From Candidatus Colwellbacteria bacterium (GTDB lineage: Bacteria > Patescibacteriota > Minisyncoccia > UBA6257 > Colwellbacteraceae): 64,000 nucleotides of DNA. This document shows positions 752 to 64,000 of this stretch, one piece after another (positions within the stretch are counted from its first letter, which is position 1; the number at the start of each line of letters is the position of its first letter). The notes beneath the pieces were generated by a model, which was given only the letters and a program-made list of their open reading frames with translations, ran no database searches and had not been told where the DNA came from. The DNA is taken from positions 7,240 through 71,239 of the forward strand of contig JACOXB010000006.1 in assembly GCA_016176505.1 (NCBI GenBank), written 5' to 3'. Made by a program: the position numbers and the translations under genes.

Positions 752-772
752 ACAATTTTTCTAGCCGAAAAA

Positions 773-862
773 CTAAAGCGAGGGGAAGTTGTCCCGAGGG
801 TGAAGAAATTTTTGCCGCTGGAGCAAAAATATTCTGCTTCTGAGGGATAATTTCCCCGAGCC
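773..862. repeat. Short variant of dispersed repeat family R1 (left flank plus right half of core)
   Basis: ctaaagcgaggggaagttgtcccgagg ... gaagaaatttttgccgctggagcaaaaatattctgcttctgagggataatttccccgagcc is near-identical to 1590-1742 but lacks the central ~63-bp hairpin core. Confidence 0.6.
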
Positions 863-1066
863 TTTGTAACTTTTTTGGATCCCCCCCGTCTTCCCTATTG
901 GTGCGCCTTGAATTTCGGCCCACCACTCGTAGTTCTTTGAAGGGAGGTGATAGATCAGTTCTGGTCCCGAGCATTCGTTCGCTGGTTAACGAGTCTCTGG
1001 AACAGAATCACTGATCTAGTCCGGTCCTGTTGTAGGCAGTGTTTCGACTACCCGGAAGGGGGAAAG

Positions 1067-1486
1067 ATGAAACGCATCGCCGCCATCGTCGCCTTCGGCC
1101 TGGTCTTTGCCCTATCTCCTGGCATAGCCGAGGCCCATCACGCGAACTGGCCCTGCGATCTCCACTGGTGGGAGGGCGTCTGGCATCGGAAGCAGCTCAT
1201 CAAGTGCGAAGAGAACCGCATCGACCCGCCAGGCACGTTCCAGTACGTGCTCGGTATCGCTCGGTGTGAATCCGGCGAAGATCTCATGGACACCTACGCT
1301 GGTGATGGTTACGCTGGTCCTTTCCAGCAAGCCACCCGCTACTGGGACACGCGCTTCGATTATTACAAGAAGCCGTGGGACAAGCACTTAGTCGACAAGC
1401 CCGGGAACTTCCGGGCGAACGTCATCATAAGCTTCCGGATGGCCAAGTCCAAGGGTACCTGGCAAGCCGATTGGGCCTGCGCCTGA
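1067..1486 (+). CDS. Secreted transglycosylase-like (Rpf-like) protein
   Basis: ATG at 1067 with GGAAGGGGGAAAG RBS. Signal peptide MKRIAAIVAFGLVFALSPGIAEA. Motif IARCESGEDLMDTYAGDGYAGPFQQATRYW resembles the Rpf/transglycosylase-like domain (CESGG ... GGLQF ... W). GC is about 60% against ~45% in flanking DNA. Confidence 0.5.
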   Translation: MKRIAAIVAFGLVFALSPGIAEAHHANWPCDLHWWEGVWHRKQLIKCEENRIDPPGTFQYVLGIARCESGEDLMDTYAGDGYAGPFQQATRYWDTRFDYYKKPWDKHLVDKPGNFRANVIISFRMAKSKGTWQADWACA

Positions 1487-1540: not shown

Positions 1541-1589
1541 GCCTAGTTGAATCCGCCAATCGGCGGTTTTTTCGTCTTTAAAAATTTAA

Positions 1590-1742
1590 CTAAAGCGAGG
1601 GGAAGTTGTCCCGAGGAACATCCCGCAGGCCTAGCTCGGCTTGGTCTCCGACTCTAGTCGGAGCGAGCAGGCCGAGGGAGAAGAAATTTTTACCGCTGGA
1701 GCAAAAATATTCTGCTTCTGAGGGATAATTTCCCCGAGCCCC
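1590..1742. repeat. Full-length copy of dispersed repeat family R1 (MITE/REP-like, structured)
   Basis: Core aacatcccgcaggcctagctcggcttggtctccgactctagtcggagcgagcaggccgagggagaagaaatttttaccgctggagcaaaaatattctgcttctga recurs as the reverse complement at 59845-59990 and 62995-63141. It contains a nested hairpin ctcggc...ctccgactctagtcggag...gccgag. Confidence 0.7.
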
Positions 1743-1770
1743 TGATGTGGTAAAATAGTAACCAGCCTAG

Positions 1771-15594: not shown

Positions 15595-15713
15595 AGTCGC
15601 CCAGTCGGCCGTCTCGGGAAAACTCCCGTTTTCCCGACCCCTTTCCCGTTCGAATCTTAGCCCGTCATCATAAAACAAAAATCCCTCGCCACAAGGCGGG
15701 GACTTTTGTTTTG

Positions 15714-15784
15714 CTGCCGGGCAGGGATTCGAACCCCGATACTCAGGTCCAAAACCTGATGTCCTACCATTAGACGACCCGGCA
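15714..15784 (-). tRNA. tRNA-Gln (anticodon TTG)
   Basis: Minus-strand cloverleaf. Acceptor TGCCGGG/CCCGGCA, anticodon stem TCAGG/CCTGA with loop TTTTGGA, T-arm GGGGTTCGAATCCCT. No CCA encoded. Confidence 0.8.
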
Positions 15785-15809: not shown

Positions 15810-16271
15810 ATGGCGAAAAACAAATTGTTCGTTGGTTTGATGGTCGGAGTGGTTGCCTTGAGTCTCTTGGGTCTCACCGGTCTTTTTAATGTGCCTTTCG
15901 GCGGCTCTGACAATTCATCCGAAGATAACAGCGGCCCCAAAAGCGTTCCTTGTCTTACAAGTGAGGCTTTCCACATTCATCCCGAACTAACCGTTTTAGT
16001 TAACGGCCAAAAAGAGGCTGTTCCGGCGAATATCGGCATTGTGCCTGGTTGCACTCGCGAGCTTCACACCCACGCTACTGACGGGGTGATTCACGTCGAG
16101 TCAGCGGTTGACCGGGGTTATGTTTTTACTAACTTTCTCGCGGTCTGGGGTAAATCGCTCGAGCGAGGAGGCTATGACTTAAAAATAACTGTTGATGGCG
16201 CCGAAACAACCGATCCGAATTTTATCTTAAAAGACGGTCAAGAAATTATTCTCGAATATACTAGTTTATAA
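15810..16271 (+). CDS. Secreted hypothetical protein
   Basis: Signal peptide; coherent 153-aa ORF. Confidence 0.45.
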   Translation: MAKNKLFVGLMVGVVALSLLGLTGLFNVPFGGSDNSSEDNSGPKSVPCLTSEAFHIHPELTVLVNGQKEAVPANIGIVPGCTRELHTHATDGVIHVESAVDRGYVFTNFLAVWGKSLERGGYDLKITVDGAETTDPNFILKDGQEIILEYTSL

Positions 16272-16277
16272 ACTATC

Positions 16278-16319
16278 ACAGAATATTATAACATTCTACA
16301 GAATGTTATAATATTCTGT
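16278..16319. repeat. AT-rich 42-bp palindrome, family P, copy 1
   Basis: acagaatattataacattct a cagaatgttataatattctgt; related copies at 22870, 39032, 57078. Confidence 0.65.
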
Positions 16320-16339
16320 ACCAAGGCTTAAAAGTAATA

Positions 16340-22767: not shown

Positions 22768-22869
22768 ATGATGTACTATTTTGCTTAGAAATATGCTTTT
22801 GAGCACTGCTATGCTATAGCATAGTGTTGTGACACGTCAAAGCACCTAATTTATTCATCGTTACAAAGA

Positions 22870-22914
22870 TATTATAACATTATGTATAATCACATTATAC
22901 AGAATGTTATAATA
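22870..22914. repeat. AT-rich palindrome family P, copy 2 (variant with central CAC and TATAAT in both arms)
   Basis: tattataacattatgtataat cac attatacagaatgttataata. Confidence 0.6.
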
Positions 22915-22979
22915 ATTATTTTACGTAGTTGCGTATGTAAAAATGAGAAGGACCCGCGGGATGTCCTTCCCAACGGGTC

Positions 22980-25500: not shown

Positions 25501-26586
25501 ATGGTTAAGTCAAGAAGGGGAAAACCAGATTACCTGATTCTTCTTGTGGCCGGCCTTTTAATTTTAATGGGCTTTGTGGCTCTGGCTTCAGCCTCTTCTG
25601 ATTTGGGCAAGACAAAGTTTGATGATGCTTATTACTATCTAAAACACCAGGCGCTTTACGGTTTTATCCCGGGTGTCTTCGGCTTTCTCATTGGTTACTT
25701 TATTAATTATCGGTTTTTGAAAAAATGGGCCACTTTGATTTTACTCGGCGCTCTTCTGCTTTTACTTTTAGTTTTTTCGCCTTTTGGTTTTACCTCAGGC
25801 GGAGCTCAGCGGTGGATCGATCTCGGCCCGGTTACAATTCAGCCAAGCGAAATTTTAAAAATTGCTTTTGTGATATATCTCGCGGCCTGGCTCTCTTCAG
25901 CTAAGGGTGACCGCCAGAAAAGTCTTCACGAAAGCTTTCTGCCTTTTATTGCTATTTCCGGTTTCATTGGCATAATTCTTTTGATTCAGAAATCAACCAG
26001 CGCCGCTTTTATTCTCCTTGGTGTCGCCTTCGTTCTTTATATGGTCGGCGGGGCTAAATTAAGATACCTCGGCGCTCTGGCTCTAATGGGAGTACTCCTC
26101 TTCGGCGCATCCATTGCTCTTACTGGTTACCGTTTGGAAAGAATTAAAACTTTTATTTCTGGAGAAGGGCAGTCTTATCATATTGAACAAGCTAAAATTG
26201 TGATTGGTTCTGGCGGCATAACCGGAGTAGGTTATGGCCAGTCGCTCTCGAAAGCCTATTTGCCGGAACGAATCGGTGATTCTATCTTCGCCATCATTGC
26301 CGAGGAGTTTGGCTTAATCGGTTCTTTAGTCATTATTTTTCTATTCTTTGCTTTATCTTTACGCAGTTTTATTCTGGCAAGAAGGGCGAGAGATCAGTTC
26401 GGCCGCTTGATTCTTGTCGGCTTCGGCCTGATTATCGGGCTTCAGGCTTTTATTCATATTGCTGCAAACTCTGGCCTGATTCCCTTGACTGGCGTGCCCC
26501 TGCCCTTTATTAGCTACGGCGGTACGGCCCTTGTTGTCTCAATGACCATGATAGGATTAATGTCGAATATCAGCCGGAATATCTAA
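25501..26586 (+). CDS. ftsW: SEDS-family peptidoglycan polymerase (FtsW/RodA)
   Basis: Ten TM helices and conserved SEDS loop motifs, next to murG. Confidence 0.8.
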   Translation: MVKSRRGKPDYLILLVAGLLILMGFVALASASSDLGKTKFDDAYYYLKHQALYGFIPGVFGFLIGYFINYRFLKKWATLILLGALLLLLLVFSPFGFTSGGAQRWIDLGPVTIQPSEILKIAFVIYLAAWLSSAKGDRQKSLHESFLPFIAISGFIGIILLIQKSTSAAFILLGVAFVLYMVGGAKLRYLGALALMGVLLFGASIALTGYRLERIKTFISGEGQSYHIEQAKIVIGSGGITGVGYGQSLSKAYLPERIGDSIFAIIAEEFGLIGSLVIIFLFFALSLRSFILARRARDQFGRLILVGFGLIIGLQAFIHIAANSGLIPLTGVPLPFISYGGTALVVSMTMIGLMSNISRNI

Positions 26587-26626
26587 CGTGTATACAGTAC
26601 CCTGTACCGAGTACCCAGTATAAAGT

Positions 26627-27016
26627 ATGGCGAACGATATAGATAAAATTCAGCGATTCACGGATCTAAATGCCTGGAAAGAGGCCCATAAGTTAAGCTT
26701 GATTATCTACAAGCTAACTGCTAATTTTCCCGCAGAGGAACGTTATTCTTTGATTGATCAGATGAGAAGAGCCGCAGTTTCAGTCACATCGAACATCTCA
26801 GAAGGATTTTCTAGAAATTCAGCAAATGAGAAGAGACGATTTTACTCCATGGCGAAGGGATCGAATATGGAATTACAGAATCAGCTTATTTTAAGTAAAG
26901 ACTTAGGCTATCTCGATGGCGATGAGTTTAAAAAAGCTTTTGAACAATCGGTCAACGTTAATAAGCTAATCAGCGGGTTGTTTAAGGCGGCTGAAAAATT
27001 AGATCATAATAAGTAA
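26627..27016 (+). CDS. Four-helix-bundle protein (the family found in 23S rRNA intervening sequences)
   Basis: LNAWKEAHKL ... AAVSVTSNISEGFSR signature. Confidence 0.7.
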   Translation: MANDIDKIQRFTDLNAWKEAHKLSLIIYKLTANFPAEERYSLIDQMRRAAVSVTSNISEGFSRNSANEKRRFYSMAKGSNMELQNQLILSKDLGYLDGDEFKKAFEQSVNVNKLISGLFKAAEKLDHNK

Positions 27017-32475: not shown

Positions 32476-33066
32476 ATGGAGGAATTAAACAACGCCGTTG
32501 AAAGCGACGAATTAGTTTTAATTCTTCACGGTGCCTCAAAAGGCATTAATTCAGAACCGGTAACCTCGATTTTTAATCGATTAAAGACAGCGTCGAAGAG
32601 GGTATCTGCGATCGAATTTTCTTTTATTACTAAAAAGACGGATCCTGATCCCGATCAAATCGTTGAAACCGAAGAATTAGAGAATTATTTAAAAGCTCAG
32701 CGCTATAAGAGATTAACAGTCATTGCTCACTCCAATGGCGGCCTCGTGGCATTAGTCGCCACCACTCGAGGCCTCGTTATCAATCACTTAATTCTGCTCG
32801 GTTTAACTTCGGTCACAAAAGAGGGGACTAAGCAAATCATCGCAGAAATAGTTCGGAAGATAACCTCCGAAGGAAATAGGGTAACCATAATACAACCAGA
32901 AAACGATCCCTATTCAACCCCCTTAGAAGTTAAAAACTTTATAAACGAGTTCGATTTAGACGTTGAGCTTTATACCATTCCAGGAGATCATTACTTCAGG
33001 GGAGCCGAGCCTAAACTTTCAGATCTAATATATGAATTAGTATCTGCTACTGAGCATGCTCAGTAG
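32476..33066 (+). CDS. Alpha/beta-fold serine hydrolase (hypothetical)
   Basis: GxSxG (AHSNGG). The stop codon lies inside the palindrome ctgctactgagcatgctcagtag. Confidence 0.5.
   Translation: MEELNNAVESDELVLILHGASKGINSEPVTSIFNRLKTASKRVSAIEFSFITKKTDPDPDQIVETEELENYLKAQRYKRLTVIAHSNGGLVALVATTRGLVINHLILLGLTSVTKEGTKQIIAEIVRKITSEGNRVTIIQPENDPYSTPLEVKNFINEFDLDVELYTIPGDHYFRGAEPKLSDLIYELVSATEHAQ
33044..33066. repeat. Palindrome ctgctactgagcatgctcagtag, copy 1; second copy at 34118-34143
   Basis: Perfect inverted repeat centred on gcatgc. Together with copy 2 it brackets the dehydrogenase gene and precedes the AbrB-like gene. Confidence 0.5.
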
Positions 33067-33129
33067 TAGGTTCGATCTAAGAGTGGGATCAATTTCCTGC
33101 CGGTTTGTGGTCTGATATAATTTGCTTAT

Positions 33130-34071: not shown

Positions 34072-34117
34072 GTGTATTCCGAGGGAGGGCTAAGCCATTC
34101 CTATTCGAATGTCCATC

Positions 34118-34143
34118 CTGCTACTGAGCATGCTCAGTAGCAG
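34118..34143. repeat. Palindrome ctgctactgagcatgctcagtagcag, copy 2 (candidate operator)
   Basis: Same 26-bp inverted repeat as 33044-33066, about 30 bp upstream of the AbrB-like ORF. Confidence 0.5.
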
Positions 34144-34359: not shown

Positions 34360-35313
34360 ATGAAAAAACCATCATCAAATAAAAGCCTACATAAAGCAAA
34401 AGATATCAAGAATGATGAATTTTATACTCGTTTTGATGATATTCAGGCAGAACTAAATTTTTATAAAGACCAGTTTAAAGGCAAAGTAATTTACTGTAAT
34501 TGCGATGATCCGGCCGAAAGCGCCTTCATTGATTTTTTCAAATTGAATTTCGATTACTTAGGTATTAAAAAGTTAATTGGTACTCGCTATCAAAAATCAA
34601 ACCTCTTTTTGTTTGCCGACCCTGCTAGACGGAACGGTTATAGGTTAGAAATAACAGCGAAAAATAAAGACGACAAAAAACCCGTCAAAATAAATTTGAA
34701 AGGAGACGGTGACTTTCGTTCGCCGGAATGCATTGAGTTATTAGAAGAGGCGGACATTGTTATTACTAACCCGCCGTTTTCACTGTTTCGTGAATATGTC
34801 GCTCAATTGATGAAATACAATAAAAAGTTTTTGATAATTGGAAACGATAACGCCATTAAATATAAAGGGATTTTTGAGCTAATAAAAGAAAATAAAGTAT
34901 GGCTTGGTTACACTAGAGCTAAGGAGTTTTATAGACCAGACGGCTCAACACAAAAATTTGGCAATGTTGGTTGGTATACTAATTTAGATGTTAAAAAGCG
35001 ACATGAAGAGTTGTTTTTGTATAAAACATACAAAGACAATAAAAAAGATTACCCAAAATATGATAATTATGACGCAATTGAAGTCTCAAGAATAAAGAAC
35101 ATACCAATGGATTATGAAGGATCAATGGGTGTTCCAATTACTTTCTTAAACAAGCACAACCCTGGGCAATTTGATATTATTGATCTACTAAATAGATATA
35201 CCTTGCTTGATACGCAAAAGACAAATGAAGATGTTAGAGCAAGACATTCCCACACTTGTAATATAAACGGTAAGGCCGTCTATTCTAGGATCGTGATTAA
35301 AAGAAAAAAATAA
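34360..35313 (+). CDS. EcoRI-family N6-adenine DNA methyltransferase (M.EcoRI-like)
   Basis: Collinear with M.EcoRI as I recall it: KSLHKAKDIKNDEFYT, VIYCNCDDP, NPPFSLFREY, FLIIGN, YPKYDNYDAI, MGVPITFL. About 33% GC, well below the window average. Confidence 0.8.
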   Translation: MKKPSSNKSLHKAKDIKNDEFYTRFDDIQAELNFYKDQFKGKVIYCNCDDPAESAFIDFFKLNFDYLGIKKLIGTRYQKSNLFLFADPARRNGYRLEITAKNKDDKKPVKINLKGDGDFRSPECIELLEEADIVITNPPFSLFREYVAQLMKYNKKFLIIGNDNAIKYKGIFELIKENKVWLGYTRAKEFYRPDGSTQKFGNVGWYTNLDVKKRHEELFLYKTYKDNKKDYPKYDNYDAIEVSRIKNIPMDYEGSMGVPITFLNKHNPGQFDIIDLLNRYTLLDTQKTNEDVRARHSHTCNINGKAVYSRIVIKRKK

Positions 35314-35316
35314 ACT

Positions 35317-36426
35317 ATGGATACGATACATCAACGAATAAAAGTAAAAGATGTTTTTAATGGCTACCTAGATAAAGATTGGGACGGCGTTGTCGGTTAT
35401 GGCGGAAAATTAGATATTCGCCCAATTTACCAGCGTGAGTTTATCTACAACCCAGAAAATGAGCGAGCGGTTATAGACACAATTTTGAAGGAGCATCCGC
35501 TAAATCTGATGTATTGGGTCAAAAATAAGAACCACAATTTTGAATTATTGGATGGGCAACAGCGAACCTTGTCAATTTGCCGTTTTCTTGATCATAAATA
35601 TCACATTGAACTCAACGGAGAAAAAAGATATTGTGATACATTATTGAAGGAAGATTTGGATAAAATAAAAAATTACGAACTAGATGTCTATATTTGCGAA
35701 GGAAAAGAAAAAGAAATTTTAGAATGGTTTAAAACCATAAATATTAAAGGTAAAGAATTAAACCCTCAAGAATTATTAAACGCCACTCATACAGGAACTT
35801 GGCTTACCGACGCAAAAAGGTATTTTAGCAAGCCAAATTGTGCCGCCAAGGGTTTGGGAGAAGATTATATTAACGCAAGCGTGGAACGACAGGAATTTTT
35901 AGAAACCGCTTTGAAATGGATAAACAATGGAGACGCGCAAGGTTATATGGCGATTCACAGAAACGACGCGAACGCAAAAGAACTACAAGATTATTTTGCT
36001 AATGTAATTAAATGGATTAAAAAAACTTTTACTACCCATCGCAGAGAAATGAAAAATGTGAACTGGGGCGAGCTATATAATCAATTCAAGGATGTGAAGC
36101 TTGATGCCGGTAAATTGGAGAAAGAAATTGCCAAACTGATGGAGGACGAAGAAATTGGTGATCAAAAAGGAATTTATGATTATGTCTTGACGAGAAATGA
36201 GCGAAGCTTGAATCTGCGAACTTTTGACGAAAAAACCAAACGCCGAACTTACGAAAAACAAAAAGGAATTTGTCCACATTGTAAGGGAGAGAATAAGAAA
36301 AAGAAATGGAAATTTGAGGAAATGGAAGGTGATCATAAAAAACTTTGGAGCGAGGGAGGAAAAACAATCCCAGAAAATTGCCAAATGTTATGCAAGGACT
36401 GTCATCGAGAAAAATCTGGAAAATAA
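35317..36426 (+). CDS. DUF262 (DGQQR, ParB-like) plus C-terminal HNH nuclease fusion; GmrSD-like type IV restriction candidate
   Basis: LLDGQQRTL motif at the N-terminus. C-terminal CPHCKG ... GDHKKLWSEGG ... NCQMLCKDCHREK is a canonical HNH. AT-rich like the MTase, 4 bp downstream of it. Confidence 0.7.
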   Translation: MDTIHQRIKVKDVFNGYLDKDWDGVVGYGGKLDIRPIYQREFIYNPENERAVIDTILKEHPLNLMYWVKNKNHNFELLDGQQRTLSICRFLDHKYHIELNGEKRYCDTLLKEDLDKIKNYELDVYICEGKEKEILEWFKTINIKGKELNPQELLNATHTGTWLTDAKRYFSKPNCAAKGLGEDYINASVERQEFLETALKWINNGDAQGYMAIHRNDANAKELQDYFANVIKWIKKTFTTHRREMKNVNWGELYNQFKDVKLDAGKLEKEIAKLMEDEEIGDQKGIYDYVLTRNERSLNLRTFDEKTKRRTYEKQKGICPHCKGENKKKKWKFEEMEGDHKKLWSEGGKTIPENCQMLCKDCHREKSGK

Positions 36427-36516
36427 TACGAACGGGGGAGATAGTAAGGGAGATTAAAATTGTTGAGAGCGGGTCAGATTGATGGGGGAAGAGGTAGGGT
36501 TTAGAATAAGGTCATC

Positions 36517-37542
36517 ATGGAACGCAAAACATTAATTCAACAAATAGAGGGATTAAGGAGCTCCAAGGTAATCACTTATATCACTAGCGATCGGCAGGGG
36601 CCGGTGAGCGCTAAAGTGGCTATGGATATCATTCCCGTCATGAGCCGACAGCTTCGAGATATCGGAAAAACCGAAAACATCGATTTATTTCTTTATAGTA
36701 CGGGGGGAGATACTATGGTGCCGTGGCGTTTGGTCTCTATGGTCAGGGAATACTGCGAGAAGTTTTCCGTACTAATACCATACAAAGCCCATAGTGCGGC
36801 AACTATGATTGCGCTCGGGGCGGATGAAGTAGTGATGAGCGATCTCTCTGAGCTGTCACCGATCGATCCGTCAACGGCAAACGTTTTTAACCCAATCGAT
36901 CCAAAAAATCCGCAGAATAGAGTTGCCATCTCCGTCGAAGACGTAATGGCCTATTTCGATCTAGTTAAAAACAAATTTGGGGTGAAAAACGACGAGGACC
37001 TCACTAAAGTCTTCGTAAAGTTTATCGAGTCGAACCCTCAGATTCACCCTCTAGCACTAGGTAACGTAAATCGTATCCATAATTTAATTCGTATTCTTGC
37101 GCAGAGGCTTCTAAAAAGCCACAGGTCGCCCATGAAAGAGGAAGAAATAAATAAAGTGGTTGATTACTTTACGGAAAAACTTTACTCACACCAATACTTT
37201 ATCGGTCGCAAAGAAGCCAAAGAAGATCTGGGGCTAAAAACGGTAGTTTTTGCTGATAGCGCACTTTCTAAAGCGATGACCGATCTTTACGGAGAATATG
37301 AGAAAGAAATGGAACTCGGTGTAATATGGAATCCGGAAAATGAGCTCGGCCTAAACGCTGCACAGAATAGAAAAACATATAAGATTGCCTTTATTGAGGG
37401 CAACCAACCCTCGAATTATTTTGAACTTGAAGTCGAATATCGCAGGCAGCAGATGAATGTAGCCCAACAAACTCCTCAAGGCTCGATCCAGGTTCCGCAA
37501 GAACAGGTTATTTGGCGGGTTGTCGGCCAGGGGTGGAGATAA
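36517..37542 (+). CDS. ClpP-fold serine protease (SDH / S49-like family)
   Basis: LFLYSTGGDTMVPWRL ... YKAHSAATMIALGADEV aligns with the ClpP/S49 oxyanion and catalytic-Ser regions. Confidence 0.55.
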   Translation: MERKTLIQQIEGLRSSKVITYITSDRQGPVSAKVAMDIIPVMSRQLRDIGKTENIDLFLYSTGGDTMVPWRLVSMVREYCEKFSVLIPYKAHSAATMIALGADEVVMSDLSELSPIDPSTANVFNPIDPKNPQNRVAISVEDVMAYFDLVKNKFGVKNDEDLTKVFVKFIESNPQIHPLALGNVNRIHNLIRILAQRLLKSHRSPMKEEEINKVVDYFTEKLYSHQYFIGRKEAKEDLGLKTVVFADSALSKAMTDLYGEYEKEMELGVIWNPENELGLNAAQNRKTYKIAFIEGNQPSNYFELEVEYRRQQMNVAQQTPQGSIQVPQEQVIWRVVGQGWR

Positions 37543-37551
37543 GGAATACCT

Positions 37552-37974
37552 ATGTCGACCATTAAACCAAAAATAAATTACGCCTTTCTATGTGATTATG
37601 CCTTTATTAGTGGGGGCGATAAGTTAAATATTATCGGGATTTTTAAAAACATAAACACGCAGAATCTTCCAGCTCAACACCCTTTGATGTTTGTGGTTAC
37701 TAGTATAGCCGTGGCGACTAAGGGTAACTTTAAAGTAAATATCAAATTTGTTCGCCGGCTAGATAATGTGGAGATAATCCCGCCCCTAGATTTCGATATT
37801 TCCATGGTTTCAGATGAGGGATCTAGAGAGGGGGAACTTGGCGTAATAGGTCAAATTGCAAATCTAAAATTCGAGGAAGCCGGGATGTACGATGTCCTAG
37901 TTCTTGTTAACGGAGAGAACATAGGAAGTTTGCCTCTCCAAGTACTCCATTTAAAGAAAAATGCCGCGAAATAA
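37552..37974 (+). CDS. Hypothetical 140-aa protein (second gene of the protease operon)
   Basis: 10-bp spacing from the protease gene; soluble; no family recognised. Confidence 0.4.
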   Translation: MSTIKPKINYAFLCDYAFISGGDKLNIIGIFKNINTQNLPAQHPLMFVVTSIAVATKGNFKVNIKFVRRLDNVEIIPPLDFDISMVSDEGSREGELGVIGQIANLKFEEAGMYDVLVLVNGENIGSLPLQVLHLKKNAAK

Positions 37975-38344
37975 AAAAGCGGAGAAGCCGAAATCATCAT
38001 TTCAATTTCTGGCAACAGAGAGTGAGTCGACTGGTGATATAACGCCGCTGGAAAAACGAGTAAGTCCTATCGAGATCAGGGTTGGGCAACTCGAGGTAAA
38101 ACTAGAGGCGCTAGAAGAACGACTGAAAGGCGAACGAGCTCTAAAATTATGGGTGATAGGTACCGTACTAGCGATTGTTGCAGGCATTTTCGGGGCCCTT
38201 ACGATATACATCAATTTAACCAAAGATTCACAGGACTCATACCGAGAGCTTCAGAATAATTATTACGAGAAACTACTGGAGCTAAGGAAAGATATTTTAT
38301 CAGAGAAAAACGCTAGCTCTCAACCACCTCAAAGCGCTAAGTGA
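37961..38344 (+). CDS. Coiled-coil protein with one TM helix (127 aa)
   Basis: Overlaps the previous gene by 14 nt; heptad region then a TM segment. Confidence 0.4.
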   Translation: MPRNKKAEKPKSSFQFLATESESTGDITPLEKRVSPIEIRVGQLEVKLEALEERLKGERALKLWVIGTVLAIVAGIFGALTIYINLTKDSQDSYRELQNNYYEKLLELRKDILSEKNASSQPPQSAK

Positions 38345-38388
38345 GCAGGATCCTCGGACAGCCGTAATTTAATTGAGAAATAAAATTT

Positions 38389-38955
38389 ATGGATAATTTC
38401 GAATTTTTTATTAGGAATACTTCTATAAATATAAGAGAGCTTAGGGATAAAATCGGTAAGTCGTTGCTCGATCTTAGAGTAGATAATATTAAACAAATCA
38501 GAGAACTTATTAAGCAGTTTATTATAATTTCCGGTGCGATTATCGGTTTCACGATACCGGTGTTTGGAAGAACTAAACTTATCAGAACGCCAGTATTTCT
38601 TACCGGTGGACTAATAGAGCTGTTAATCGTCATGGTGTATGCCTTTTATTACCTGATGCATATTTTAGAGAGCGAAAATCAAAAGTTAGGAGAACAGCAC
38701 GAACGTTATAATAAGATTATTGATAGCCTAAGAGATAATCTGATTATTTTTGCCACGAGCGATAAGACCGAGAAAGACGCACAAAAGCAACTTGACTCCG
38801 ATAAACAAGTGTTGGATGAATTTCTATCCGAAGAGGCGGGCGACAAGGGTAATAAGAAAGATTACGCCTTAAATATTATTTTTTCTGCGTTTTTGGTCGG
38901 ACTCGTATTGATAATCTTATCAATGATAAATTTTCAGAATTTAATTTCGGATTAG
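38389..38955 (+). CDS. Three-TM membrane protein (188 aa)
   Basis: AT-rich; hydrophobic helices at roughly 55-75, 85-110 and 165-185; charged coiled-coil middle region. Confidence 0.4.
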   Translation: MDNFEFFIRNTSINIRELRDKIGKSLLDLRVDNIKQIRELIKQFIIISGAIIGFTIPVFGRTKLIRTPVFLTGGLIELLIVMVYAFYYLMHILESENQKLGEQHERYNKIIDSLRDNLIIFATSDKTEKDAQKQLDSDKQVLDEFLSEEAGDKGNKKDYALNIIFSAFLVGLVLIILSMINFQNLISD

Positions 38956-39031: not shown

Positions 39032-39072
39032 ACAGATATTATAACATTCTGCAGAATGTTATAATGTTCTAT
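39032..39072. repeat. AT-rich palindrome family P, copy 3
   Basis: acagatattataacattctg cagaatgttataatgttctat. Confidence 0.6.
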
Positions 39073-42324: not shown

Positions 42325-42558
42325 ATGAGGATATTTGTTAAAGCCAAGCCGAATGCTAAAGAGACGCGGATTGAGAAACTAGATGAGAATCGTTTTGCCG
42401 TAGCGGTGAAAGAGCCGCCGATTGGCGGCCGAGCTAATGTCGCGATTGAAAAGGTGATTGCTGAGCACTTTAAAGTGCCAGTCTCAAGAGTGCGGATTGT
42501 TTCCGGCCATACTTCGCGGCAAAAAGTATTCGAGATAACAGGCGAACTTTTTTGTTAG
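42325..42558 (+). CDS. DUF167 / YggU-family protein
   Basis: KAKPNAK ... V ... PP..G.AN ... FEI pattern. Confidence 0.6.
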   Translation: MRIFVKAKPNAKETRIEKLDENRFAVAVKEPPIGGRANVAIEKVIAEHFKVPVSRVRIVSGHTSRQKVFEITGELFC

Positions 42559-43514
42559 TTTTTCAACCTTGAGCCGCTGTGAAATTTTTTATGGATTTCG
42601 CGCAGTTTTTTACTGGTAACGTGAGTATAAATTTGAGTGGCCGTAATGCTCTGATGTCCTAGAAATTCTTGAAGGATGCGGATGTCCACTCCTTGGCTTA
42701 AGAGATCTGTCGCGAAAGAGTGACGAAGAACATGAGGGGTAGTGTTCGCGGGTAAACCGGCGAGAAGCGCATATTTTTGGATGCTCTTCTCAATAGATCG
42801 AGCGGTAAGGCGGCGTGAGGCGCTAGACATGCTCCTATAGTTTATAAATAGGGCCTTATCATTATCAGTACGAGATTTCAGGTATCTTTTAAGCCATTGA
42901 AGCGTTCTTGACGAAAAATACACCGTACGGGCCCTACTGCCTTTGCCAACAATTCCTAGTTCTAGCTCATTTAAATTAAGTGACGATTGAATTTGTTCGC
43001 GATTTAGGGCAACCAGTTCTGATATCCGCATGCCGGTGGAAAAAAATGTTTCGAGTATGGCCCTATCTCTAAGTCCGCTCGCCTTATTCACGTTAGGAAT
43101 CGAAAATAATCTTTCAAGTTGTTCTAGCGTGAGAAAACGGACCTCTTTCTCGCCTTTATCGCGAGGTAATTTTATTTTCTCTGGCGGCAGGGCTAGAATG
43201 TCGCGCTCAGCAAAATAAGTTAATAAAGAGCGCAGGGCTATCAAATAATAAGCCTGGGTGCTTTTACTGAGCGATTTTGAAGACCGCTTGGATCGGGTCT
43301 GACGGGCGAGGTAGATTCGGTATTTCCAGACATGGTCAGGGGAGAGGTCGTGAGGTTTTAAATCAGAGAGTTTATTTTCTTTTAACCAATCTAAAAACCG
43401 ATTTAAAAACCGAGCATAATTTTCTTGAGTTTTAGATGATAAACCTTTTTGGACATCAAGCCAGTCTAAATAATCTGGAAGATGCTGGGGAAGTGGTTTT
43501 GAGCTTTTAACCAT
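42555..43514 (-). CDS. xerC: Tyrosine site-specific recombinase XerC/XerD
   Basis: HVLRHSFATDLL ... GHQSITATQIYTHV catalytic box (R..H..R..Y) and an N-terminal core-binding domain. Confidence 0.8.
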   Translation of the reverse strand: MVKSSKPLPQHLPDYLDWLDVQKGLSSKTQENYARFLNRFLDWLKENKLSDLKPHDLSPDHVWKYRIYLARQTRSKRSSKSLSKSTQAYYLIALRSLLTYFAERDILALPPEKIKLPRDKGEKEVRFLTLEQLERLFSIPNVNKASGLRDRAILETFFSTGMRISELVALNREQIQSSLNLNELELGIVGKGSRARTVYFSSRTLQWLKRYLKSRTDNDKALFINYRSMSSASRRLTARSIEKSIQKYALLAGLPANTTPHVLRHSFATDLLSQGVDIRILQEFLGHQSITATQIYTHVTSKKLREIHKKFHSGSRLKN

Positions 43515-49377: not shown

Positions 49378-50233
49378 TTTTGTTTTTTTTGGCACGCCAA
49401 GATTCGCGGCTGTTATTCTTGAGAAACTAATTGCTGGCGGTTGGGCGCCGCAGGCTTTAGTTTGTAATCCAGATCGACCCGTAGGAAGGAAACAAGTAAT
49501 TACTCCGCCGCCGACTAAAACTAGTATCTTGAATCTAGAATCTAGTATTAAGAATGAAATTAAGATTTTTCAGCCGAAGAATAAAAACGAGCTTGTGAGC
49601 ATCAGTGATCAGTTGTTCCAAGAGGCTGATTTTGGTATTTTGGCTGCTTATGGCCAGATTGTGCCGCTCGAGGTTATAAATAAAGCTCGTTTTGGCATTA
49701 TTGGGGTGCACCCCTCGCTTTTACCAAAATTCCGAGGCCCGACCCCTATTCAGTCAGCTATTTTAGAAGGCGAAACTACGACTGGTGCTACGCTGTTTTT
49801 AATGGATGAAAAAGTGGATCATGGTCCGGTAATTAGTAGTAAGGGATTAGTAGTAAGTAGTAAGGATGGTTACGAGACATTGGAAACGAGATTGGCGGAG
49901 TTGGCCGGAGATTTGTTGATTGAAACTTTGCCGAAGTTTGTGAAGGGTGAAATTACTCCCCTGCCCCAGAATGAGGCCGAGGCTACTTATACTAAGAAAT
50001 TTACAACCGAAGATGGTTATATAAATCCGAAAGAACTTCAAGCGGCAACAAGCGGCGCTAATCAAGAAAAAGCAATTGAGATTGAGCGGAAAATCAGAGC
50101 GTTGAATCCTGAACCTGGAGTTTGGACCGAATTGGATGGCGTGAGGACAAAAATCCTTGAAGGCGTTTTAATTGATTCTCGGCTCAAACTTGTTAAAATC
50201 CAGAAGGCCGGAAAGAGGCCAATAACGTTATAA
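49358..50233 (+). CDS. fmt: Methionyl-tRNA formyltransferase
   Basis: FFGTP N-terminus, formyl-transferase HPSLLP motif, immediately downstream of def. Confidence 0.85.
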   Translation: MTTSKNNFVFFGTPRFAAVILEKLIAGGWAPQALVCNPDRPVGRKQVITPPPTKTSILNLESSIKNEIKIFQPKNKNELVSISDQLFQEADFGILAAYGQIVPLEVINKARFGIIGVHPSLLPKFRGPTPIQSAILEGETTTGATLFLMDEKVDHGPVISSKGLVVSSKDGYETLETRLAELAGDLLIETLPKFVKGEITPLPQNEAEATYTKKFTTEDGYINPKELQAATSGANQEKAIEIERKIRALNPEPGVWTELDGVRTKILEGVLIDSRLKLVKIQKAGKRPITL

Positions 50234-50234
50234 A

Positions 50235-50305
50235 TGCGGGATCGTCTAATGGTAGGACGCCTGACTCTGGATCAGGTAATCTAGGTTCGAATCCTAGTCC
50301 CGCAG
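50235..50305 (+). tRNA. tRNA-Gln (anticodon CTG)
   Basis: Acceptor TGCGGGA/TCCCGCA, anticodon stem CCTGA/TCAGG with loop CTCTGGA, T-arm CTAGGTTCGAATCCTAG. Confidence 0.8.
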
Positions 50306-50310
50306 CTAAT

Positions 50311-50351: not shown

Positions 50352-50372
50352 GACTAGGATTCGAACCGAAGG
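50352..50372 (-). repeat. Inverted 16-nt copy of the tRNA-Gln T-arm/acceptor (ggttcgaatcctagtc)
   Basis: Reverse complement is identical to 50284-50299 of the tRNA. Confidence 0.45.
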
Positions 50373-50476: not shown

Positions 50477-50547
50477 GTTCGACTCCCTAGCCCCGCAGCC
50501 AAGTCGTGCTGGCGCGAAGAGCGTATGAGTCTCGTGCGCTCGAGGAG
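50477..50547 (+). repeat. Degenerate tRNA-Gln 3'-end copy plus a conserved ~50-bp segment (att-like scar A)
   Basis: gttcgactccctagccccgcag resembles the tRNA 3' end. It is followed by ccaagtcgtgctggcgcgaagagcgtatgagtctcgtgcgctcgaggag, which repeats at 51362-51412. Confidence 0.5.
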
Positions 50548-50569
50548 GGTAGCGTGATACGATTTCTAC

Positions 50570-51337
50570 ATGATGAGCAAGACAATAATACATAAGATTC
50601 CCAACGAGTTTGGCGAGAAGCTAGATGTATTAGTTGAAGGGAATGAGGGTGCCCCAGAAATGCTAGTTTTTGTTCATGGCTATGGGACAGATAAAGACGA
50701 GGGGTTCTCATCCTTTATTGATTTATCTAACGCTTTCAAGGATGAGTACTTAAATATTAGATACGACCAGGCGGGCTACGGAAAGAGTGAGGGAGAGGAT
50801 AAGGCCTTTAATCTTCAAAGGGCTGCGGGAGATCTACGCAGTATTCTCAGATGGGCCAAGGAACAGTATCCAGATAAGAGAGTAAATATCCTAGCGCACT
50901 CCCTGGGTATATTTGCTCCCCTTCTGCTATCACCCGAGGACGTAGAAAGGTTTGGATTTACTAGTATCCCTAATGCAGATACTGAGTATTCAATAGACTT
51001 CCTCCAAAAGAGAATTAAGGCTGCTGGGGGTAGGGTAGATGAAAGTGGGATTAGTGCCTACCCAAGAAGTAAAGGTGCAGTTCAGTTCATAGGGGCTGAG
51101 TTCTGGAAAACGTTGAGGAGCTTAGATCCCGTTAAACTCATTAGTAATTTAGCCAAGACATCTAAAATAGCCATCTTCAGGCCAATGCAGGACGATGTGC
51201 TTGGACTAGATCATTTTGATGAGTACAAGAATATAGAGGGAGTTCAATACACAGAATTGGATGGAGATCATAATTTCACCAAGTTAGAAGATAGAAAAGC
51301 TGCGATAGATGCACTTAGGGAGTTCCTCAAGAAGTGA
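50570..51337 (+). CDS. Alpha/beta hydrolase (hypothetical)
   Basis: GxSxG (AHSLG), HGYG oxyanion region. Lies between the two att-like scars. Confidence 0.55.
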   Translation: MMSKTIIHKIPNEFGEKLDVLVEGNEGAPEMLVFVHGYGTDKDEGFSSFIDLSNAFKDEYLNIRYDQAGYGKSEGEDKAFNLQRAAGDLRSILRWAKEQYPDKRVNILAHSLGIFAPLLLSPEDVERFGFTSIPNADTEYSIDFLQKRIKAAGGRVDESGISAYPRSKGAVQFIGAEFWKTLRSLDPVKLISNLAKTSKIAIFRPMQDDVLGLDHFDEYKNIEGVQYTELDGDHNFTKLEDRKAAIDALREFLKK

Positions 51338-51344
51338 GATCGGT

Positions 51345-51412
51345 TTGATTCCTAGACCCCCAGCCAAGTCGTGCTGGCGCGAAGAGCGTATGGGTCTCGG
51401 GCGCTCGAGGAG
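51345..51412 (+). repeat. Second degenerate tRNA-Gln 3'-end copy plus conserved segment (att-like scar B)
   Basis: ggtttgattcctagacccccagcc followed by aagtcgtgctggcgcgaagagcgtatgggtctcgggcgctcgaggag. Confidence 0.5.
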
Positions 51413-51455
51413 CGTCAAGTCGTGAGCGTTTTTACTACTAAGATATAATTAGCAA

Positions 51456-57092: not shown

Positions 57093-57130
57093 CATTCCGT
57101 ATAATCACATTATACAGAATGTTATATTAT
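57078..57130. repeat. AT-rich palindrome family P, copy 4 (variant with central CAC and TATAAT)
   Basis: acagaatattataacattccgtataat cac attatacagaatgttatattat. Confidence 0.6.
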
Positions 57131-57169
57131 TATTTTTCTATTCAAAAAGCAGAAGCCTCCAACGAAAAC

Positions 57170-57201
57170 AAAAGGACCCCGACTATAGTCGGGGTCCTTT
57201 T
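57170..57201 (-). terminator. Terminator hairpin at the 3' end of rnpB
   Basis: aaaaggaccccgactatagtcggggtcctttt followed by a T-tract on the minus strand. Confidence 0.55.
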
Positions 57202-57202
57202 G

Positions 57203-59663: not shown

Positions 59664-59704
59664 ACATTAGTAGTATGTAGTATGTAGTATGTAGTAGCAA
59701 CGGG

Positions 59705-59838: not shown

Positions 59839-59844
59839 CCTTAA

Positions 59845-59990
59845 TTGTCTCGGCCAGTTGCTCTTCAGAAGCAGAATATTTTTACTCCAGCGGCAAAAAT
59901 TTCTTCTCCCTCGGCCAGCTCACTCCGACTAGAGTCGGAGACCAAGCCGAGCTAGGCCTGCGGGATGTTCCCTAGAGCAATCTGCCCGAG
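59845..59990 (-). repeat. Repeat family R1, copy 3 (reverse orientation)
   Basis: Reverse complement matches the 1627-1720 core with 3-4 substitutions. Termini attgctct ... gaagagcaact are inverted repeats of each other. Confidence 0.7.
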
Positions 59991-60001
59991 ATTAAGATGC
60001 T

Positions 60002-60628
60002 TTAGTTGCCTTGGGCCCTCTTCCTGAAGACAATAAATTTATAGCCGATGAAGTTCCAGACTAGGGCGGCGAAAGTGGCAAAGAAGGCGGCGAGGTTTGC
60101 TAGGAGAACTACCGCCATGAACGACTCAATGCCTCCGCTAACGATCAAGGGGATTATCCGCAGAGCACCAGCAGCTACGCCCACATTTATTACTAAGCCG
60201 ACTAGGCTGACCCCTAAAAATTCGATAAATTCTGCCTTCTTCTTCGAACCCGCCTCAAAAGTCCAGTATTTGTTCCAAAAATAACTGTTTATAACAGCCG
60301 CGGTAAATGATATCGCTTTAAAAACCCCGAACCAAAAACCAGCTGCGATGCCGCTCATAATAAATAATAAATTGAGGACGCCGAAGTCCACAAAAGTGTT
60401 TAGGCCGCCGACCACAGCAAATTTACCGATTTGCCAGAGGATCTGGAGCCAGCGACTTAAAAATTTAACTATAAAAAGTCCAACAATGGTTAAAAGTCCT
60501 AGGGTTGAAGCGATGCCAATTTGAATAAGGGTTGGAAGACTCGGAACAAGGTTCAGGACAGTGGGAAACGAAAGAACAGCCACGAGAACCGCGGCCAAAA
60601 CACCAACTTTTAAATCTTTCTTAGACAT
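60002..60628 (-). CDS. GtrA-family membrane protein
   Basis: C-terminal KFAVVGGLNTFVDFGVLNLL GtrA signature with an N-terminal extension of two TM helices. Confidence 0.55.
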   Translation of the reverse strand: MSKKDLKVGVLAAVLVAVLSFPTVLNLVPSLPTLIQIGIASTLGLLTIVGLFIVKFLSRWLQILWQIGKFAVVGGLNTFVDFGVLNLLFIMSGIAAGFWFGVFKAISFTAAVINSYFWNKYWTFEAGSKKKAEFIEFLGVSLVGLVINVGVAAGALRIIPLIVSGGIESFMAVVLLANLAAFFATFAALVWNFIGYKFIVFRKRAQGN

Positions 60629-62976: not shown

Positions 62977-62994
62977 AAGGAATTTGAGTTTTTG

Positions 62995-63141
62995 GTAACC
63001 CTCAGGTAATTGCTCTTCGGAAGCAGAATATTTTTACTCCAGCGGTAAAAATTTCTTCTCCCTCGGCCTGCTCGCTCCGACTAGAGTCGGAGACCAAGCC
63101 GAGCTAGGCCTGCGGGATGTTCCTTAGAGCAACTTACCTTC
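62995..63141 (-). repeat. Repeat family R1, copy 4 (reverse orientation)
   Basis: Near-identical to copy 3 and to the core of copy 1; between the galT start and the PBP stop. Confidence 0.7.
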
Positions 63142-63156
63142 GACCAAAAACTCAAT

Positions 63157-64000
63157 TTATCGAAGTCTATTTTCATAATACCACCTAAAGACATCTCGGG
63201 CGATGGGGACAGCGTTCAGGCTTCCCTCTCTCGCGTCTTCAACAAGAATCAAAATCGCAATCTGGGGATTTAGAGCCGGGGCGTAACCAATAAAAAGGGC
63301 GTTGGTTTTGGTATTACTAGCGATCTGGGCGCTTCCGGTTTTAGCCGCAATCGACATCGGGACATCATTAAGGGCGTGAGCCGTGCCATAAGTTTCGGTG
63401 ACCGCATCAATCATCCCCTCTTCGACTTCACTAAGAGCCGAGCGCCACTCGCCTACATCGAACAAGAGCTCTGGCGAATCGGTTTTCTTAATATGGGGGA
63501 CATAGGCTTGGCCGCCAGTCGCAATTGCGCTTGTGGCAGATAAGAGCTCGATCGGCGTTAAGAGCAAATCTCCCTGACCGATCGAGACGTTATAAGTATC
63601 ACCCACCCGCCAGATCTGGCCAGTTCTTGATTCTTTTTCTTCCGGACTCGGCAAAAAGCCAGCCGCCTCACCGGGTAAATCAATACCGGTCTTTTTATCA
63701 AAGCCGAACTTTTGCCAATATTGCCTTAGTTTTTCAATGCCTACGCCGCGAATATTCTCAAAACCGCCGCCGACAGTGTAGAAATAAACGTTGGAAGAAC
63801 GGGCTAAGGCCGAACGTAAATTAACCCAGCCATGAGCTTTCCAGTCGAGAAATCGGCTCGGTTGATCCGGGAAATAAGGATTTGGGATTTCGATATAACC
63901 AGCTGAGTAAACTGAGGTTTCTGGGCTGACTACGCTTTCGCCGAGAGCCGCTATGGCATGAACCGGTTTAATGGTTGAACCAGGAGCGTAAAGACCGGAA
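63157..64000 (-). CDS. Penicillin-binding protein transpeptidase domain (PBP2/FtsI-like), 5' part beyond the window edge
   Basis: KTGS and C-terminal motifs. The frame stays open upstream of the listed TTG start (FDKKTGIDLPGEAAGFLPSPEEK...), so the gene continues to the window end. Confidence 0.7.
   Translation of the reverse strand, partial: SGLYAPGSTIKPVHAIAALGESVVSPETSVYSAGYIEIPNPYFPDQPSRFLDWKAHGWVNLRSALARSSNVYFYTVGGGFENIRGVGIEKLRQYWQKFGFDKKTGIDLPGEAAGFLPSPEEKESRTGQIWRVGDTYNVSIGQGDLLLTPIELLSATSAIATGGQAYVPHIKKTDSPELLFDVGEWRSALSEVEEGMIDAVTETYGTAHALNDVPMSIAAKTGSAQIASNTKTNALFIGYAPALNPQIAILILVEDAREGSLNAVPIARDVFRWYYENRLR

Follow-up and report, generated by a model that had tools for sequence, protein, structure and literature searches.

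R1, a structured interspersed repeat with covarying arms around a conserved three-way junction in CPR bacteria

Structured interspersed repeats are a known kind of bacterial element, of which Correia, ERIC and bcr are examples. The Correia elements of Neisseria (CREE/NEMIS) are intergenic, measure 100-190 nt, and have inverted-repeat ends that form a long stem, which is a substrate of RNase III. They occur in a long form and a short one, the latter lacking 50-60 nt internally, and are transcribed together with the genes beside them. Their ends are a 26-bp inverted repeat that is conserved and accompanied by a TA duplication, and the family is restricted to one genus. The ERIC/IRU elements of enterobacteria, the bcr elements of the Bacillus cereus group and the BOX/RUP elements of pneumococcus are also dispersed between genes and fold as RNA, and compensatory changes have been reported for ERIC and bcr4-6. 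In other systems the unit is a strand-specific, single-stranded hairpin for which structure counts over sequence. These include the REP/REPIN sequences with their RAYT (Y1 HUH) and the IS200/IS605 derivatives known as PATEs, neither of which need a target duplication; REPs are hairpins of 20-40 nt whose GTAG head is conserved, and a REPIN is a simple doublet. Integron attC sites, imperfect palindromes specific to one strand, keep the structure of their arms more than the sequence. Their centre varies, their outer R''/R' boxes (RYYYAAC/GTTRRRY) are conserved, and they lie as a one-orientation array beside intI. Retron msr-msd is a non-coding RNA with a1/a2 inverted repeats, located directly upstream of a reverse transcriptase gene.

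Here we describe R1, an element of 140-190 nt that is present in four copies in the window, the 64-kb stretch of a Candidatus Colwellbacteria genome analysed in this study. Two proteins encoded here, the glycosyltransferase and GtrA, match with 100% identity proteins of a 74-kb contig that carries the NCBI label Candidatus Colwellbacteria (Parcubacteria group, Patescibacteria). One strand of R1 folds as a long terminal stem capped by a three-way junction. R1 resembles Correia in its intergenic location, its length, its inverted-repeat ends that form a long stem, and the occurrence of a short form with an internal deletion; it may also be similar in being co-transcribed with flanking genes and processed by RNase III/E in the stem, the prerequisite seen in R1 being a paired stem of at least 25 bp. 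Unlike in Correia, the arms of R1 differ and covary, the three-way-junction core is found across CPR lineages, and target duplication is inconsistent. R1 shares dispersal between genes and RNA folding with ERIC, bcr, BOX and RUP, but has no sequence or Rfam relationship to them, is set apart by a defined three-way junction whose loops are conserved, and belongs to Patescibacteria. A strand-specific single-stranded unit as in REP/REPIN and PATEs, with no need for target duplication, would fit copy D and the G-U asymmetry described below; however, R1 is a three-way junction of 140-190 nt without GTAG head or doublets, and no Y1 transposase was seen among the window ORFs scanned. R1 is attC-like in being a strand-specific imperfect palindrome whose arms keep structure over sequence, and in that small foreign-looking ORFs adjoin (an ORF between copies A and B here, an RNA and a GC-rich ORF in L061), yet R1 is built in reverse, with a conserved centre and variable ends, and it is dispersed in both orientations, far from the only tyrosine recombinase of the window. 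No reverse transcriptase lies next to any R1 copy, which separates R1 from retrons. A literature search found no description of interspersed structured repeats in CPR/Patescibacteria. What is new is therefore not the kind of element but its architecture, its breadth across CPR lineages, and the covarying arms around a conserved three-way junction, none of which is catalogued in the resources searched.

The copies in the window and their common fold

As listed in Table 1, the window contains four R1 copies, three full-length and one internally deleted, at the places where an earlier note on this DNA had reported them. A 21-nt core probe allowing up to 3 mismatches matched exactly 4 sites in the window, against 0.02 expected by chance, and a covariance model run on both strands with filters off retrieved only these four copies, the lower-scoring matches being generic hairpins only. 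The core that the note described as shared was also confirmed, since B, C and D share a 104-nt core at 96-99% identity, as were the nested hairpin and the GAAGAAATTTTT...TTCTGCTTC hairpin. Each copy folds better than shuffled sequence (z -4.7 to -6.5), and 0 of 200 shuffles were as good. The terminal inverted repeats ascribed to C and D are present there, but they are not restricted to these two copies; all four have them, and they are the arms of the terminal stem P1.

Table 1. R1 copies, parts of copy B and the flanked ORF in the window
Feature	Position	Strand	Remarks
Copy A, short form	771..866	+	-43.7 kcal/mol, z -5.6; 57.5 bits
Copy B, full length	1588..1744	+	fold; 136 bits
Copy B, P1 5' arm GCGAGGGGAAGTTGTCCC	1595..1612	+	pairs with 1722-1739; tandem G-A/A-G step (GCGA/GAGC)
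Copy B, conserved GGAACAUCCCGCAG	1615..1628	+	GGAAC = P1b 5' strand, CCC = P2 5' strand
Copy B, P3, variable covarying hairpin	1629..1672	+	7-nt bulge GCUUGGU conserved; apical stem CUCCGAC/GUCGGAG
Copy B, CGAGGG (P2 3' strand), then P4 hairpin GAAGAAAUUUUUACCGCUGGAGCAAAAAUAUUCUGCUUC	1673..1718	+	conserved loop CGCUGGA
Copy B, P1 3' arm GGGATAATTTCCCCGAGC	1722..1739	+	
Copy C, full length	59843..60007	-	fold; 129 bits; between GtrA and PGK
Copy D, full length, P1 extended to ~35 bp	62978..63164	-	fold; 137 bits; between PBP2 and GalT
GC-rich secreted-protein ORF flanked by A and B	1067..1486	+	followed by two hairpin terminators, 1497-1537 and 1553-1574

The fold common to all members consists of P1, a GGAAC/GUUCC helix (P1b), the three-way junction, and the hairpins P3 and P4. 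In the 5' half, the P1 5' arm is followed by an internal loop, GGAAC (the 5' strand of P1b), AU, CCC (the 5' strand of P2), GCA and P3. The 3' half then runs through CGA, GGG (the 3' strand of P2), one free nucleotide, P4, GUUCC (the 3' strand of P1b) and an internal loop to the P1 3' arm. P1 comprises 16 bp in the model and reaches 25-40 bp with small internal loops in many copies; one subfamily has a tandem G-A/A-G step in this stem, and no alternative pairing for P1 was evident. The junction strands AUCCCGCAG and CGAGGG are conserved, and the junction strand GGAACAUCCCGCAG of copy B is nearly invariant throughout the family. P3 is the hairpin that varies; it has an apical stem, and its 7-nt bulge, GCUUGGU, is conserved. 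P4 consists of GAAGAAAUUUUUGC, the loop CGCUGGA and GCAAAAAUAUUCUG. These two conserved unpaired motifs, GCUUGGU and CGCUGGA, resemble each other. The possibility that R1 is coding was rejected: a GGN wobble and frequent downstream stops in one P4 frame were suggestive, but there is no start codon, and the length of P3 varies across the family by non-multiples of 3.

All four window copies are intergenic and abut stop or start codons, as had been noted before; they have the same orientation as the neighbouring genes and fill the whole spacer. R1 is short and non-coding (93-190 nt), and the ORFs that overlap its copies are spurious only. Its orientation in the window does not follow the uniform GC skew of this DNA. 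Copy A starts 20 nt past the FtsX stop codon (751) and equals copy B minus about 60 nt: from its 5' end AACTAAAGC and the P1 5' arm it passes directly into P4 and then the P1 3' arm. A pair of CCGAGG direct repeats bounds the deletion, which took out the P1b 5' strand, P2 and P3. Copy B follows the terminators of ORF 1067-1486 and precedes a glycosyltransferase (GT2-type) gene that starts at 1771. Copies A and B thus flank this ORF, in agreement with the earlier description, but the label 'Rpf-like' is backed by a sub-threshold Pfam match only (Transglycosylas, E 0.005, 17.8 bits, below the cutoff of 27), and the protein is only weakly transglycosylase-like. The 5' end of copy C, again AACTAAAGC, supplies the TAA stop codon of GtrA (60002-60004), its 3' end adjoins the -35 box of the PGK promoter, and AAGGC flanks it on both sides (60008-60012 and 59838-59842) as a candidate 5-bp target duplication. 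Copy D contributes a TAA stop two codons downstream; its end precedes the GalT ATG (62976) by 5 nt.

Distribution of the family and covariation of the fold

Two sequence scans and a covariance model yielded about 45 distinct R1 relatives, from groundwater metagenomes and one Saccharibacteria genome; this sample was gathered with exact sequence probes and is biased. Among species-representative genomes, an exact-pattern scan returned a single true homologue, in a Saccharibacteria-labelled MAG (L003), the other 3 of 4 matches being chance, as was the metagenome match L036. Since the probe used for the genomes contained TTCTGC, which is specific to this lineage, while most members have TTCTGG, the single genome match understates the distribution. 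A second probe found 50 loci in metagenome contigs, nearly all from groundwater projects, about 48 of which are true members. The covariance model detected extra diverged copies on the same contigs, namely three within 7 kb of L019, two in L031 and a head-to-head pair in L009. Contigs of 60-230 kb contained one exact probe match each, so the copy number may be low in many genomes. The family is thus not confined to the window, as the segmental duplication considered in the earlier note would imply, but lies on dozens of unrelated contigs.

No Rfam 15 family (riboswitches, ribozymes, SRP, 6S, tmRNA, Y RNA, HEARO/omega RNA and others) matched the window or five loci at gathering scores, and with E up to 10 positions 700-1800 gave spurious miRNA-type hairpin matches only. 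ARAGORN located a separate tmRNA beside one R1 copy. On these Rfam and ARAGORN results a known RNA family was rejected, and the diverse contexts, the several copies per contig and the separate tmRNA argue against a single-copy housekeeping RNA (SRP, 6S, 5S or tmRNA-like). A phage or plasmid origin found no match in IMG/VR (pattern), INPHARED or PLSDB (blastn), and a full-text search for the conserved sequence returned nothing. R1 is a previously uncatalogued element that is widespread in ultra-small groundwater CPR bacteria.

The covariation of the fold was examined in an alignment of 40 distinct sequences with 45 pairs, amounting to 1786 pair cells. Standard pairs occupy 94% of these cells, compared to 75% after partners were shuffled within columns, and sliding the partners by 1-3 columns lowered the paired cells to 40-49%. 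Double compensatory changes occur at 27 of the 45 pairs, including 16 of 16 modelled P1 pairs and 9 of 9 P3 pairs. The number of double-change cells was 355 against 119 in shuffles and the covariation score 0.516 against 0.162, neither observed value being reached in any of 500 shuffles, although such shuffle-based counts overstate the significance because the aligned sequences are phylogenetically related. The near-invariance of P4 (5' half) in this alignment is an ascertainment artefact, since the search pattern covered it. In the diverged copies L031:8222 and L019:934 the P4 stem does covary, from AUUUUUG/CAAAAAU to AAUCCG/CGGAUU and to GACGCGCU/AGCGCGGAC, while the loop CGCUGGA stays unchanged.

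G-U cells outnumber A-C cells by 96 to 25 overall, and therefore one particular strand folds. The ratio is 29:5 in copies co-oriented with both neighbours and 22:9 in copies antisense to both, hence the folding strand is intrinsic to the element and independent of the direction of host transcription. All helices covary, the nucleotides of the junction, bulge and loop are fixed, and the wobble tolerance is intrinsic to one strand; together, these features indicate that selection acts on a folded single strand. The unpaired nucleotides are conserved between a Parcubacteria genome and a Saccharibacteria-labelled genome, which would also fit a cellular RNA function.

Insertion, decay and genomic context

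Two relatives share, in synteny, the operon PBP2-GalT-DedA-TIM-GtrA-PGK, which harbours copies C and D in the window; their GtrA is 68% and 55% identical. At the site of copy D, PBP2 and GalT overlap in L068-71 (ctATGAgt in L068), and in L072 the overlap is 26 nt, whereas the window has 187 extra nt exactly at this overlap, both arms included. Insertion into pre-existing host hairpins was rejected on this ground, as the empty site lacks the whole 187 nt together with the arms. The site of copy C is empty in both L068 and L072; L068 has the GtrA stop within the -35 box of PGK, and in the window the two are separated by the 165-nt element. Near copy B, an 83% identical relative (L058) keeps the terminators of the upstream ORF but has no copy B. 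A 78% identical relative (L059) has a 68-nt spacer between FtsX and the glycosyltransferase without A, ORF 1067-1486 or B. In another Colwellbacteria genome the same spacer carries an R1 in opposite orientation with a different GC-rich ORF, and in a sister strain of the latter an R1 remnant only (L062). The relatives have zero R1 copies in 15-20 kb of this region. Thus, R1 entered at least three sites of this Colwellbacteria lineage recently, these sites being empty in syntenic relatives; because the latter are distant, only 55-83% identical in flanking protein, the exact junctions are uncertain. The mobility proposed in the earlier note is supported by the absence of B, C and D from the syntenic sites, by the many contexts of the family, and by assemblies that break at the repeat, the short-read contigs of the window strain ending at R1.

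R1 copies also decay by internal deletion, as in copy A, and a truncated copy (L050) and the remnant in L062 are further decayed members. In addition, modules appear to have been exchanged between copies. In the window, the 25-nt arms adjoining the cores are about 55% identical, compared to 96-99% for the cores, with a sharp boundary at P1b; L031 shows the converse, with the same arms and flanks and different P3 and P4. Gene conversion, with the conserved junction strands as its anchor, may have brought about this exchange. The arms of A and B, which lie 0.8 kb apart, are identical. R1 clusters with other repeat modules.

Target-site duplications, the other hallmark of insertion raised in the earlier note, gave a mixed picture. 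Symmetric flanking direct repeats of at least 5 nt were found 19 times, against 10.2 +/- 2.6 in permuted flanks, and plausible duplications of 5-7 bp exist at C (AAGGC), L024 (ATAAGG), L019 (TGGGT), L051 and L015. When strict adjacency was demanded, however, 6 of 43 copies had a repeat of at least 5 nt, some of these being palindromic stem sequence. Most copies have no duplication, and comparison of copy D with its empty site leaves room for a target duplication of at most 1 nt.

R1 occupies about 36 distinct loci with unrelated housekeeping neighbours, including ribosomal proteins S15/S16, NusG, LepA, EF-P, SmpB, DnaE, DnaN, MurB, MurG, FtsQ, SecD, ClpB, pilins, DedA and GtrA. Each of the four orientation classes is represented: approximately 10 copies are co-oriented with their neighbours, 11 are antisense, 6 are between divergent and 4 between convergent genes. 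When the flanking ORFs were clustered, only DedA and GtrA recurred, in three lineages each, because the synteny of their operon is conserved, and a conserved neighbouring gene was accordingly discarded. So was a dedicated promoter: promoter-like scores upstream of R1 are no higher than on the opposite strand, which served as control (Wilcoxon p 0.62). Inside the window copies there are neither promoter-like nor terminator-like sites. Unrelated neighbours, mixed orientation and the lack of a promoter or terminator speak against R1 as a leader or riboswitch, and also against an RNA gene of the conventional, stand-alone kind. For a riboswitch or cis-acting leader one would expect a constant 5' UTR position, a coherent gene set and an expression platform; R1 has unrelated neighbours, a mixed orientation and, for its P1 of 16 to over 30 bp, no evident alternative pairing. 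The alternative reading of R1 as a 'regulatory module' is not supported for the same reason, as neither the neighbouring genes nor the orientation are conserved. Compensatory evolution at orthologous loci was considered as well, but the shared upstream flanks of L026, L030, L037 and L053 are another repeat module and not orthologous genes, so that no argument from evolution in situ is possible.

Possible explanations for R1

The classification as a MITE/REP-like element needs qualification. R1 is short (under ~500 bp) and non-coding, and its copies are dispersed with presence/absence polymorphism, as in MITEs; that it is dispersed, recently mobile and strongly structured stands. Against the label, the arms, about 55% identical, are not a conserved transposase-binding sequence, as the ends of elements moved by a sequence-specific transposase would be, and across the family they covary like an RNA stem; the duplications are inconsistent, and no transposase or reverse transcriptase turned up among about 50 window ORFs. 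The ends are complementary in every copy, yet there is no terminal consensus across the family. A Pfam scan of the approximately 50 window ORFs detected no transposase, HUH endonuclease or reverse transcriptase, and no Y1_Tnp match; no mobilising enzyme was seen beside the metagenomic copies either. The only tyrosine recombinase of the window (42555-43514) lies at least 17 kb from every copy. The window also carries a defence island and a bAvd/23S-IVS-like protein.

The insertion polymorphism, the random context and orientation, the decayed copies and the clustering with repeat modules point to a non-autonomous mobile element. We consider it somewhat probable that R1 is such an element of CPR/Patescibacteria, which spreads via a single-stranded intermediate recognised by its junction. 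It would propagate through a transcript or ssDNA, and a putative enzyme encoded in trans would recognise the conserved junction, bulge and loop, whereas the arms would need only to pair; this would explain why the structure and not the sequence of the arms is conserved. Within a genome, the cores may be homogenised by recombination or gene conversion between copies. Insertion at gene ends is tolerated because the ends of the element carry stop codons, as seen at C and D. When host transcription runs through a sense-oriented copy, and all four copies here are so oriented, the 25-35-bp P1 could form a double-stranded RNA of the type cut by RNase III, which would split the operon transcript.

Several observations would be expected if R1 copies were genes for trans-acting small RNAs, such as an RNP scaffold or a new ribozyme, that are released from longer transcripts by cleavage of P1 and whose gain and loss reflects ordinary gene turnover and not transposition. 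Such genes would account for covariation in every variable helix, for the conserved junction, bulge and loop, for G-U tolerance on one strand only and regardless of host gene orientation, for the occurrence of the family in both a Colwellbacteria genome and a Saccharibacteria-labelled genome, and for the likeness of GCUUGGU and CGCUGGA, which binding sites would show. However, there is no upstream promoter signal beyond the control and no terminator, about 11 copies are antisense to the two closely spaced genes that enclose them, synteny is not conserved, and truncated and deleted copies occur. Moreover, R1 was recently inserted into an otherwise conserved operon, once between overlapping genes, and close relatives have zero copies in 15-20 kb of this region. 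We therefore regard small RNA genes as rather unlikely. A related idea, likewise tentative and in our opinion unlikely, is that R1 represents a new class of CPR RNA, either mobile at the RNA level (SINE-like or ribozyme-bearing, and copied via its transcript) or a multi-copy functional RNA that binds a common partner. In the functional version, the GCUUGGU bulge and the CGCUGGA loop would bind this partner, and their UGG could pair with tRNA 3'-CCA ends, a pairing with precedent in T-boxes and RNase P; in either version the long P1 would serve as a processing or recognition handle.

An ordinary MITE moved by a DDE transposase with short staggered cuts would match R1 in size, terminal inverted repeats, multiple copies, insertion polymorphism and the internally deleted short form, and the excess of flanking repeats over permuted flanks agrees with it. 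The covariation would then reflect maintenance of inverted repeats, for example by template-switch correction of quasi-palindromes, instead of selection on a folded strand, but a double-strand process is not expected to produce a 4:1 asymmetry of G-U over A-C, nor to let the short P3 and P4 hairpins covary with loops and junction fixed. Considering further that the termini are not conserved, that D lacks a target duplication relative to its empty site, that few repeats are strictly adjacent and some of these are palindromic stem, and that no transposase is found among the window ORFs, this seems quite unlikely. What the four window copies have in common, sense orientation, spacers filled entirely and ends that abut stop or start codons, is suggestive of a domesticated cis-acting module that punctuates operons, with an effect on how RNA is processed, how stable it is or how translation re-initiates, and that the host retains at certain junctions between genes, and the envelope genes FtsX, PBP2, GalT, GtrA and DedA do recur as neighbours. 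Yet family-wide the neighbours are functionally unrelated and the orientation random, relatives have a working version of this operon with no R1 in it, and the recurrence of DedA and GtrA comes from operon synteny, making this role very unlikely. The identical arms of the closely spaced copies A and B could come from a segmental duplication, but C and D are 58-61 kb away and have different arms. A duplication or chance similarity confined to the locus is refuted by the probe count in the window and by the dozens of homologues on unrelated contigs, and we give it practically no weight.

R1 as a probable non-autonomous mobile element has several implications. The tiny, streamlined genomes of CPR/Patescibacteria still host active small mobile elements, and elements of the R1 type can separate genes that overlap, provide stop codons and cause metagenome assemblies to break. 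The combination of transposon-like insertion polymorphism with RNA-like covariation and one-strand G-U tolerance makes R1 a tractable case for the study of selection on a single-stranded fold. The family is also a candidate for a new covariance model, with a seed of about 40 sequences and 45 supported pairs, and such a model would improve the annotation of CPR genomes, where these regions now give spurious ORFs.

Possible leader and promoter-like signals in the window

In addition to the R1 copies, several other non-coding features were found, and their coordinates are listed in the table. The AT-rich near-perfect palindromes look like an operator or bidirectional promoter motif; one of the four sites in the window adjoins the RNase P RNA gene (57200-57590, minus strand), and another is located approximately 0.5 kb from tRNA-Gln (15713-15784). 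The periodic runs of the TAGTAT/GTAC type are situated immediately 5' of the start codons of the bAvd-like gene, the ORF starting at 49556, and PGK, and the run upstream of PGK is also kept in one relative, the syntenic locus L068. Because no Shine-Dalgarno sequence is evident at the genes preceded by these runs, in this lineage they may signal translation initiation or act as a leader signal.

PGK is preceded by a strong promoter (TTGACT-17-TATACT). A leader of approximately 110 nt follows 3' of the promoter; this leader, which L068 shares in conserved form, terminates in a terminator-like hairpin with a T-run (59712-59735). The PGK leader region (59700-59837) gave no match in Rfam, and it may be an attenuator or riboswitch-like leader that has yet to be characterised.

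Features of the window and of other loci
Feature	Locus	Position	Strand	Property
AT-rich palindromes	window	16263-16321, 22869-22922, 39036-39070, 57084-57137		ATATTATAACATTCT-n-AGAATGTTATAATAT
TAGTAT/GTAC-type runs	window	26585-26626, 49522-49555		period roughly 7 nt
TAGTAT/GTAC-type run	window	59664-59700	minus	period roughly 7 nt
TAGTAT/GTAC-type run	L068	10745-10792		period roughly 7 nt
PGK promoter and leader	window	59700-59837	minus	
23S-rRNA-intervening-sequence protein gene	window	26627-27016		bAvd-like four-helix bundle
Low-GC island	window	34360-38955		35-41% GC
GC-rich direct repeats	window	50486-50550, 51351-51415		92% identical
Distant R1-like element	L009	1482-1613	minus	22-30 bits
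Distant R1-like element	L035	13777-13885	minus	22-30 bits
Distant R1-like element	L044	3415-3569	minus	22-30 bits

A low-GC island and a repeat-flanked gene

The low-GC island, which has inverted repeats at 33044-33088 and 34099-34143 as its flanks, is probably a defence island; it encodes an EcoRI-type adenine methylase, a GmrSD-N plus HNH endonuclease, an SDH-type ClpP-like protease and DUF6941, as well as orphan ORFs. The bAvd-like gene is located inside the cell-wall cluster, between ftsW and murG. An alpha/beta-hydrolase gene (50570-51337) is flanked on both sides by the GC-rich direct repeats, the whole lying shortly 3' of tRNA-Gln(ctg) (50235-50306), and a fragment resembling a tRNA T-arm (ggattcgaacc) is found around position 50358. 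Sequence similar to these repeats, rich in CTCGAGGAG/CGCTCGC, is also present 5' of the R1 copies at the loci L044, L057, and L014.

Elements and small genes that accompany R1

A second conserved non-coding module of 100-150 nt (X1, X2, or X3) is present on the 5' side of R1 in three metagenomic lineages (loci L026/L030/L037/L053; L031, with two copies, and L033; and L044/L057/L014). Each of these modules consists of a variable hairpin between conserved flanks, and their orientation relative to R1 is constant. On L031, the composite unit of module and R1 is delimited by a 15-nt direct repeat, GAAAAGGTTTTGTTG.

The spacer between FtsX and the glycosyltransferase gene differs between two near-identical Colwellbacteria strains. 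In one strain (L060/L061, 9240-10000) it measures approximately 720 bp and contains an R1 copy and a GC-rich orphan ORF that encodes 123 aa and has a terminator of its own, whereas in the other (L062, 7954-8088) a remnant of approximately 90 nt is found. In the window the same spacer is occupied by two R1 copies with an ORF between them, so it is apparently a hot spot where small foreign genes arrive together with R1.

The distant R1-like elements combine a long stem with a three-way junction, and are located head-to-head beside R1 copies, or nearby, which suggests that CPR genomes hold a wider superfamily of long-stem/three-way-junction elements.
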